A stretch of DNA of 35,836 nt from the IMG/VR virus record IMGVR_UViG_2645727821_000018, one strand, 5' to 3'. Made by a program: the position numbers and the translations under genes. Position 1 is the first letter of the stretch, and every line of letters begins with the position of its first letter. The stretch is from a virus (Duplodnaviria > Heunggongvirae > Uroviricota > Caudoviricetes). Below, one piece after another: positions 15,547 through 16,516 of the stretch. Under the pieces are notes generated by a model that saw nothing but the letters and a program-made list of their open reading frames with translations, was not told the origin of the DNA and searched no databases.

Positions 15547-15616
15547 TCACATTTTGAGGATATTTAACGTCTATGCTTTAATGATTTTATTCATTGTTTT
15601 ATAATCGCGAAGAATA

Positions 15617-15868
15617 ATGATGAACTTGGCAAAGGATATGATTATGCGTATTAAACCTCAAGATTTTAAGTTTGATGTGTTGACTGTTGCTGGTTACGCT
15701 AACCCTAAAGCTAAAACACATTTCGCACCTTCTGCTTCTGGATTTAATTTTAAATGGGAGTGGGAAGGGAAAATTTATGAGCTTCATATCGAGCAAGAAA
15801 AATTACAGTACCCTGATTTTATTCTTGAACGACTTTTTGATGCCGCAATTGAGATGGCTAAAAAATGA
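15617..15868 (+). CDS. Hypothetical small protein in an AT-rich island
   Basis: ORF of 75-83 aa (candidate ATGs at 15617, 15638, 15644; AAAGGA precedes 15644). No family recognised. Confidence 0.4.
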   Translation: MMNLAKDMIMRIKPQDFKFDVLTVAGYANPKAKTHFAPSASGFNFKWEWEGKIYELHIEQEKLQYPDFILERLFDAAIEMAKK

Positions 15869-15974
15869 CAAAAATCACCGGATGGGGTTTTTGTTTATAG
15901 ATATTCACACATAGCCCTTGCATCTAGAACAGAAAATCTTGTCATGGCGCGGGGCTATGTTAGCAAAAATTTAT

Positions 15975-16414
15975 TTAATAGGATATTTTGTTTGCAGATT
16001 TAAGCTCTTTAAGAGTAGCGTCAAGTATATGTAAAAATAGAGAAGTGTCGCCATACTCATAATGTGGCTCGGATTTGTATTCTCTAATATAAATAAATCC
16101 ACCTTTGGATAAAAATAAATCAATCAGCTCGTTGTTATTTTCATCGGTTGGGTCAATGGCAGCAAACTTCAATACAGGAGCTTCATCAATGACTAGCAGT
16201 GTTTCTTTGAAAATAAGTTCTAGTTCATATGTTGAAAGTTTGAGGGTTAACCTATTTTTTTATCTTTATTGAAAATTATTGTGTCGCCAAGAAAATCGTA
16301 TTCAGAGCTTGAGTCAATAATGTTATTCTTAAGTTTGAGAGATATTGCATCTAAAGCCTTTTTATGCTCTGCGCACTTAACAACTTTATGAACATCTAAA
16401 CTGGGGATACTCAT
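15975..16414 (-). pseudogene. Hypothetical gene interrupted by a frameshift at a homopolymer tract
   Basis: Two minus-strand ORFs (16247-16414 and 15975-16259) become one continuous reading frame of about 146 codons if one base is added or removed in the T7 run at 16254-16260. Upstream part has an AGGTGG SD before the ATG at 16414. Confidence 0.4.
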
Positions 16415-16516
16415 AATACAACCACCTATGTAAGAACTAAAGAGCATTGAGTCTATGTGATTAATATCAAGACCCAATTAAATTTTTTAAATTATTAGAG
16501 TTAGATCCCACTTTAA

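Follow-up and report, generated by a model that had tools for sequence, protein, structure and literature searches.

When a gene is found to be split at a run of identical bases, is the break a phase-variable switch, the mark of recent pseudogenisation, or a sequencing error? The question is raised by a minus-strand gene in a 35,836-nucleotide stretch of viral DNA (IMG/VR record IMGVR_UViG_2645727821_000018; hereafter the window), which the open reading frame (ORF) listing and the RefSeq annotation of identical records identified as an HK97-like lambdoid prophage. An earlier reading of the window, made from its letters alone (the sequence-only reading), had described an AT-rich island between the lysis and packaging modules where a small plus-strand gene converges on the split gene, had offered all three explanations of the break, and had added that such gene pairs are typical of toxin-antitoxin or exclusion modules. 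The island forms a cargo ('moron') slot, with two independent genes inside, in an HK97-like lambdoid prophage of Escherichia coli sequence type 95 (ST95). In our overall reading of this cargo slot and its two independent genes, to which we give roughly four chances in five, one of them, an orphan encoding 146 amino acids (aa), has been recurrently nulled by slippage in a codon-driven run of eight adenines (A8).

Intact and broken alleles in E. coli genomes

Translation of the two halves (16247-16414 and 15975-16259) bore out that the minus-strand gene is split at a homopolymer. As it stands in the window, its product is 55 aa followed by a stop (16247-16414), with the remainder (15975-16254) out of frame and 15975-16259 open in another frame. 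The run at the break exists as described, T7 on the plus strand and A7 in the mRNA, at 16255-16261, one base off the 16254-16260 first given. One added T joins the halves into a 146-codon ORF, as had been foreseen, and this allele exists in nature: alignment with homologous loci, the check that had been proposed, showed that records with T8 carry the intact 146-aa gene, matching over 982 bp instead of 981 and annotated with the hypothetical protein WP_000026993.1. The run lies at codons 52-54 of 146, where A8 is in frame (GAT AAA AAA AAT, Asp-Lys-Lys-Asn) and A7 gives ...DKKIG-stop. The intact T8 allele was found in S88, extraintestinal pathogenic E. coli (ExPEC) XM, ATCC 11775 and others, and in the island alignment the extra T was the sole difference between ExPEC XM and the window.

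The 981-bp stretch 15540-16520 was 100% identical to the chromosomes of E. coli UTI89, NU14, IHE3034, UM146, avian pathogenic E. coli (APEC) O18 and many other ST95-type ExPEC/APEC strains. Among 5426 complete E. coli genomes the island was found in 105, in one copy each and always at an identity of at least 99%. When these 105 records were ranked against a T8 query, rows 1-59 were T8 and row 60 (NU14) opened the T7 set, giving 59 T8 genomes, about 43 T7 genomes and 3 with IS1-associated deletions; of the complete genomes with the island, about 58% thus have the gene whole and about 40% have it broken. In a 15-billion-protein collection the intact protein was present on at least 1000 contigs and the 55-aa T7 product on 871, from NCBI, JGI, ENA and Logan. 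In the three deletion genomes (two identified, ZJ3920 and APEC E18006), IS1 adjoins sequence from about 16330 onward (L006, NZ_CP020545.1, 2288-3190), and the early and lysis genes, the 74-aa gene that is the other gene of the island, and two thirds of the 146-aa gene are lost. This is another, independent route to loss of the 146-aa gene.

These distributions bear directly on the idea that T7 is an assembly or sequencing artefact and that the true run here is T8 with an intact gene. Homopolymers are error-prone, and the window has a private extra T at 13702-13707, so its source assembly may hold homopolymer errors; yet dozens of complete genomes, assembled independently and by different technologies, have the same island at 100% identity, T7 included (UTI89, NU14, IHE3034, UM146, APEC O18 and several FDAARGOS strains are examples), and the 871 contigs with the 55-aa product come from four sources. 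An artefact is extremely improbable, and sequencing error as the cause of the break is excluded for the lineage by the same T7 in about 43 independently assembled complete genomes. The comparison also resolves an ambiguous annotation, in that the region which UTI89-type genomes leave empty or call a 65-aa fragment holds, in frameshifted form, a real orphan gene with a structured product.

Independent origins of tract-length changes

Single-nucleotide polymorphisms (SNPs) were compared over about 29 kb of prophage aligned between the window and 12 complete genomes. The resulting ST95 prophage tree was star-like around an unmutated haplotype, which was borne by the window, MS20655, AH21F008 and FDAARGOS_1296 (the UTI89-type group), all T7. 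S88, ExPEC XM and ATCC 11775 have 6334C in common and are all T8. PA45B (T8) and GN06758 (T7) have four derived SNPs in common (6343, 6347, 12629 and 15887), with no private indels in GN06758, and about 20 more T8 genomes are apparently PA45B-type, going by their 99.8% identity band. Similarly, IMT5155 (T7) has four derived SNPs (10225, 21933, 24371 and 25063) in common with BEN2908 and E19035, which are both T8. On this tree T7 appears to have arisen independently inside ST95 at least two times, and probably three.

A second prophage lineage, with a GH19 endolysin and different holins, carries the gene at 93% aa identity and was found to vary at the same site. Four lengths were seen there: A7 (L044 from IMG/VR, and P0045 on 10 contigs); A9, with a product ending ...DKKK-stop (L033/P0008); A5, in frame with one Lys fewer (L008/P0002); and A8 accompanied by a second frameshift at another run (L009/P0003). 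Because T7 stands on three ST95 SNP backgrounds and A5, A7, A8 and A9 occur in lineage 2, the A-run is a recurrent slippage hotspot. Of the three explanations first offered for the break, recent pseudogenisation therefore fared well and can be extended, being recurrent, with several ST95 origins plus A7, A9 and A5 in the second lineage.

ST95, a major ExPEC lineage, thereby holds a natural allelic series (A8 intact, A7 null with several origins, and the IS1 deletion), which the second prophage lineage extends with an A9 null and an in-frame A5 and which is usable to seek a phenotype of this prophage gene.

Slippage loss or an evolved switch

In the mechanism that we propose, the AT-rich codons for Lys-Lys-Asn would create the run and make the gene unusually easy to lose. 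Replication slippage would take one A from the A8 run (GAT AAA AAA AAT), leaving a null allele whose product ends after 55 residues, and the same deletion would have been repeated within ST95 and again in the second prophage lineage, with one event fixed in the UTI89-type sublineage. We infer that loss of the gene was neutral or mildly favoured.

A run of this kind is expected, because Asp-Lys-Lys-Asn is written GAT AAA AAA AAT in a gene of 32% guanine-cytosine (GC) content. In a synonymous permutation test, 57% of codon permutations of the intact gene contained a run of at least 8, so that an A/T run this long is statistically not unusual for it. Among relatives the A-run is missing from the group at 62% identity (GAT GCA GAA AAC), and the group at 30% identity has nothing comparable. 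Tract length was uniform within haplotype groups: all window-type genomes and four UTI89 records were T7, three '729' isolates were T8, and about 20 PA45B-type genomes were T8 versus one T7. The SNP tree requires no OFF-to-ON reversion. A short, codon-expected run that is missing in most family members and stable within clades points to recurrent pseudogenisation by slippage rather than evolved phase variation, and phase-variable expression in the strict sense, as originally proposed, was not upheld. The A-run is best described as a mutational hotspot that repeatedly yields heritable null alleles, one of which became fixed in the UTI89-type sublineage.

Classical contingency loci, such as the homopolymers of Neisseria, Haemophilus and Campylobacter, usually have longer tracts, which are conserved as such, switch at 1e-2 to 1e-5 and show length variation inside one culture. 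The present locus resembles them in that a frameshift at a mononucleotide run toggles expression (A8 in frame, A7 out) and in that independent length changes recur at the site. It differs in that the run is of 8 nt, is explained by codon usage and not kept beyond that expectation, is not conserved among homologues, and is stable within clades.

An evolved contingency locus, in which the A-run would be a reversible ON/OFF slipped-strand switch by which the lysogen population hedges on the 146-aa protein, is therefore to be weighed on the same data. ON and OFF alleles are both very common, several independent length changes occurred at one site in ST95, and the sister lineage has A5, A7, A8 and A9. 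Short poly(A) runs are also of raised mutability, mutating about 100-1000x faster than point mutation as measured for the A6/A7 run of Listeria monocytogenes inlA (PMC2831843). Against this, a run of only 8 nt would, by the comparable inlA rates, change far more slowly than classical phase variation; it is met in 57% of codon permutations and is not conserved in the family; alleles are uniform within haplotype groups with no OFF-to-ON event required; and the frameshift of one lineage 2 form lies at a different run (P0003), which is decay-like. We consider such a switch unlikely.

The inlA case offers the closest comparison of scale. In its 5' poly(A) run A7 is in frame and A6 is frameshifted (Orsi et al. 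2010, PMC2831843), the frameshift has multiple independent origins, and the rates of 4e-8 to 5.5e-7 per cell are well above point mutation and far below classical phase variation (PMC2831843). Both are short coding poly(A) runs whose natural populations hold in-frame and frameshifted alleles, and in both some lineages have an interrupted or shortened, non-slippery form, here A5 in P0002 and GCAGAAAAC in the 62%-identity group. In inlA, however, the run is at the extreme 5' end of the gene, whereas here it lies at codons 52-54 of 146 in prophage cargo.

A fourth possibility is that the T7 allele is leaky or recoded, 'turned-down' and not null, because a -1 ribosomal slip or transcriptional slippage on A7 restores the frame. 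A-runs and tRNA-Lys are slippery in E. coli, and the allele reads GAU AAA AAA AUA, where a -1 tRNA-Lys slip before the rare AUA codon would give AAU AGG and with it the exact wild-type Asp-Lys-Lys-Asn-Arg. The 70 nt downstream of the run, however, folded no better than shuffles (z = +0.39), giving no stimulatory structure, and no Shine-Dalgarno-like stimulator was seen upstream of the run. All other family members are single ORFs, with T8 as the outgroup-supported ancestral state. Restoration of the frame is very unlikely as an account of the allele; programmed frameshifting was rejected for want of a stimulatory element, leaving at most background leakiness. As a control design, the interrupted counterpart of the A-run is AAGAAAAA.

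Several observations weigh against recurrent slippage loss of a functional gene. A sigma-70 consensus scan found no promoter upstream of the 146-aa gene. One of the ST95 origins of T7 rests on IMT5155, whose T7 call is less trustworthy because its assembly (L014) has three private 1-bp insertions (window-equivalent 2842, 2906 and 10530) that create 'frameshifted' annotations, so that the assembly may be error-prone. A8 is taken as ancestral because all outgroups are single ORFs, and T8 ancestry is argued by these outgroups only; on ST95 parsimony alone the star-like tree could conceivably be read as a T7 ancestor with several T7-to-T8 reversions. Both alleles are common, and balancing selection on a switch, as opposed to drift, could also explain this.

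An orphan family with a predicted alpha-beta fold

Exhaustive HMMER searching of 1.84 billion representative proteins with the 146-aa protein returned 7 proteins, and a profile search over 5.8 billion returned 16 clusters, all from Enterobacteriaceae (E. coli, Salmonella, Citrobacter koseri, Atlantibacter hermannii and Lelliottia), all named 'hypothetical' and all without a Pfam domain. Family members are 143-146 aa long at 27-93% identity in alignment, and the ratio of nonsynonymous to synonymous substitution rates (dN/dS) between distant members was 0.20-0.32. Because length is conserved across this range of identity at such dN/dS values, the product is a real protein under moderate purifying selection. 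No relative was found among 185,579 GTDB species-representative genomes, where only one peptide pattern was used, and tblastn of the protein against 50,697 phage records gave no match.

The statement that neither product of the island matches a known family was confirmed with Pfam, PHROGs, NCBIfam, PADLOC, PDB sequences and Rfam. Pfam, PHROGs, NCBIfam and PADLOC gave nothing significant for both proteins and all 13 aligned family members; a PDB sequence profile search gave a chance match only (E = 0.22); an Rfam scan of 15300-17100 at E up to 1 gave no family; and no literature was found on the RefSeq accessions. The lone PADLOC match, to PDC-M24A, was weak (E = 0.011-0.016), covered 30 residues and was seen in 3 of the 13 members, close ones only, so it was not family-wide and a known anti-phage defence system was rejected.

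The protein is acidic (16.7 kDa, isoelectric point about 5.2) and has no hydrophobic segment, and is predicted to be soluble. An AlphaFold2 model built on 3 sequences only had a mean predicted local distance difference test score (pLDDT) of 39; after the family was widened to 13 sequences a usable model was obtained (pLDDT 84.7, predicted template modelling score 0.77). In this model two helices, at residues 8-37 and 126-140, and an antiparallel sheet of seven strands between them in the chain are predicted to form an alpha-beta sandwich. The 55-aa T7 product would retain the first helix and one strand only, and because of this it is almost certainly non-functional if the model holds. Foldseek against the PDB gave no match at E <=1e-3. 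A BFVD search gave one full-length neighbour, an uncharacterised protein of Burkholderia phage Mana (template modelling score 0.71, E = 1.4e-5). Frataxin/CyaY-like and type III secretion chaperone/YbjN-like alpha-beta sandwiches may resemble the model, at the level of fold only, and membership of the frataxin/CyaY family was rejected (hhalign probability 0.1%, no Pfam match).

Most uses of this fold are in small adaptors, chaperones and inhibitors that bind other proteins, and for this reason our best guess from the model is that the protein may be a lysogen-expressed binding factor, modulating for example a host protein or a protein of an incoming phage. A bolder combination, that the family is an undescribed lysogen-expressed partner-binding factor (in superinfection exclusion or anti-defence, for example) and that the ST95 A8 run is a low-rate selectable ON/OFF switch for it, is quite unlikely; were it true, nature would provide an OFF population in the UTI89/O18:K1:H7 sublineage and an ON population in S88/ATCC 11775-type strains.

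Two neighbours that occur apart

The plus-strand ORF at 15617-15868 exists as the sequence-only reading had reported; its start at 15617 (83 aa) has no homologue support, and RefSeq and homologue N-termini favour 15644, giving 74 aa. Homologues of this protein are 72-74 aa long at 68-78% identity, with starts equivalent to 15644, and their genes lie about 100 nt 3' of Rz in Citrobacter freundii, Enterobacter asburiae and metagenomic lambdoid prophages. The packaging genes of these prophages are of the Terminase_2/6 type, their antisense cargo is different, and the 146-aa gene is absent from all of them. In the second prophage lineage a stop codon shortens the 74-aa gene to 50 aa (...KLHIE-stop; L008 689-841, L009 8616-8768, L033 3621-3773). 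No match to the 74-aa protein was found by tblastn in the 50,697 phage records. The 74-aa gene is an independent, conserved post-lysis ('post-Rz') gene. Logan-derived clusters also include frameshifted forms of it (P0020, P0026).

The 146-aa gene, by comparison, keeps to the other side of the slot. At every fetched locus that reaches far enough on the HNH side (L007, L009, L010, L013, L033 and L035-L045; L008 ends before that side), it lies antisense to the late operon on the HNH/terS/terL side, usually head-to-head with HNH across about 100 bp. The gene on its other side is not constant: lineages 1 and 2 have the 74-aa gene there, L007 has an unrelated gene of 76 aa, and L010 and L013 have a glycosyltransferase-like gene of 485 aa in divergent orientation.

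If the two convergent genes formed a toxin-antitoxin or exclusion pair, they would have to cooperate, and the frameshift would disable one partner. Two small genes in an accessory slot fit the general expectation for such slots, but the genes are convergent and not co-transcribed, with terminator-like hairpins between them, and each is found without the other: the 74-aa family follows Rz in Citrobacter, Enterobacter and metagenomic prophages that have no 146-aa gene, and the 146-aa family stands beside the unrelated 76-aa or glycosyltransferase-like gene. The small gene is itself shortened in lineage 2, and it is unchanged in the roughly 43 genomes that have lost the 146-aa gene. Pfam, NCBIfam, PHROGs and PADLOC gave no significant match to a toxin, antitoxin or defence model. 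A type II toxin-antitoxin module in particular was rejected, there being no single operon, no co-occurrence of partners and no toxin or antitoxin similarity. A cooperating pair is highly improbable; the convergent arrangement and the independent occurrence of the 74-aa gene dispose of an interpretation that was tempting but lacked support.

Other cargo was seen in related prophages. In L010 (6467-7924) and L013 (6467-7924), from Lelliottia and another E. coli prophage, a member of the 146-aa family at about 30% identity is divergent from the 485-aa protein, which has a GT2-like N-terminus (...ITTxNR...VVxDDGS...); this gene is further cargo in the same slot. Right after the 74-aa gene in Citrobacter, Enterobacter and metagenomes (L025-L032), the antisense cargo varies between a 65-aa gene, DUF2158 with an 80-aa gene, and a 206-aa with a 78-aa gene, which suggests that the position after this post-Rz gene is a general cargo hotspot of lambdoid prophages.

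The island and its expression signals

The island, the location of which between the lysis and packaging modules was borne out by the GC profile and by the flanking gene ends, has a GC content of 0.29-0.36 over about 15450-16500 versus 0.46-0.59 on both flanks. The gene order of the prophage is integrase, early genes, antiterminator Q, holin, GH24 endolysin, Rz, HNH, terminases, portal, protease, capsid and contractile tail, with HNH followed by a P27-family small terminase and then the large terminase (17484-19217). Coordinates are collected in Table 1. A megablast search of the island against the 50,697 phage records gave no match, and a repeat search for island boundaries or mobile-element ends gave short chance repeats only.

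Table 1. Positions of the island, its genes and its candidate signals in the window.
Feature	Position	Strand	Basis or remark
GH24 endolysin gene	14636-15112		
Rz spanin gene	15109-15546		
AT-rich accessory ('moron') island	15547-16516		Between lysis cassette (Rz end 15546) and HNH/terS/terL packaging module (HNH start 16517)
74-aa gene, WP_001220676.1	15644-15868	+ (late-operon strand)	RefSeq annotation, homologue N-termini
Hairpin between A-tract and U-tract, overlapping the 74-aa stop codon; candidate bidirectional intrinsic terminator	15867-15895	both	RNA folds
Longer second hairpin, CATAGCCCC...GGGGCTATG, between the convergent genes	15909-15960	both	RNA folds
Frameshifted allele of the 146-aa prophage gene	15975-16414	-	Translations; intact allele is WP_000026993.1
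Slippage site, T7 on the plus strand, A7 in mRNA	16255-16261	-	Alignment of window with S88, ExPEC XM and GN06758
Divergent intergenic region common to HNH and the 146-aa gene	16415-16516		Should hold the promoter of the 146-aa gene (inferred)
Shine-Dalgarno-like AGGTGG, 7 nt upstream of ATG 16414-16412	16422-16427	-	Read from sequence
HNH endonuclease gene	16517-16867		

Folding of 15860-15985 as RNA gave -32.5 kcal/mol on the plus strand (z = -3.78, 0 of 200 shuffles as good) and z = -2.35 on the minus strand. The two predicted hairpins between the convergent stops are consistent with bidirectional termination. A consensus promoter/terminator scan did not call the hairpin at 15867-15895, and its counts were no higher than in shuffles. 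Upstream of the 146-aa gene a weak promoter match can be made out by eye behind an A/T-rich stretch (TTGGGT at 16477-16472, a 16-nt spacer, and TAGACT at 16455-16450), and the gene is probably expressed in the lysogen from its own promoter.

Relation to phage morons

Morons and lysogenic-conversion genes are known downstream of the lysis cassette of phages, as with bor of lambda, which lies directly behind Rz in antisense; the idea of the moron arose in HK97/HK022 genomics. The 146-aa gene is like them in being an extra gene between conserved modules, with a GC content of about 0.32 versus about 0.55 in the flanks, opposite in direction to the late operon, bounded by hairpins and absent from related phages (by tblastn of the 50,697 records), and in that the same slot carries other cargo in related prophages. 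It differs in that its protein bears no relation to Bor, lacks both signal peptide and lipobox and should by prediction be soluble, and in that the family goes with the HNH/terminase side of the slot and not with the lysis side. Its loss is an event of an ordinary kind affecting an uncharacterised family, and adds one more case, with no new mechanism, of AT-rich, Lys-rich prophage cargo that is intrinsically prone to slippage loss.

Other length variants and frameshifts in the prophage

The extra T at 13702-13707, in the intergenic space from antiterminator Q to the next gene, makes T6 in the window, where T5 is the state in all 12 aligned ST95 genomes and in the best matches among complete genomes. 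The extra base occurs in no complete E. coli genome, and it is either a private 1-bp insertion or a homopolymer error of the source assembly. The longest homopolymer of the window is a G8 run at 14405-14412 inside the holin gene (about 14344-14649 in RefSeq), and was invariant in the 13 aligned genomes. BEN2908 (L016) has many private SNPs and indels, with several internal stops or frameshifts (methyltransferase, DUF968 and portal; window-equivalent 12046-13088 and elsewhere), and the prophage in this strain appears to be decaying. In all ST95 genomes fetched, RefSeq annotates a pseudogene ('frameshifted hypothetical protein') at about 5223-5533 on the minus strand, so the prophage has at least one older, fixed frameshift.

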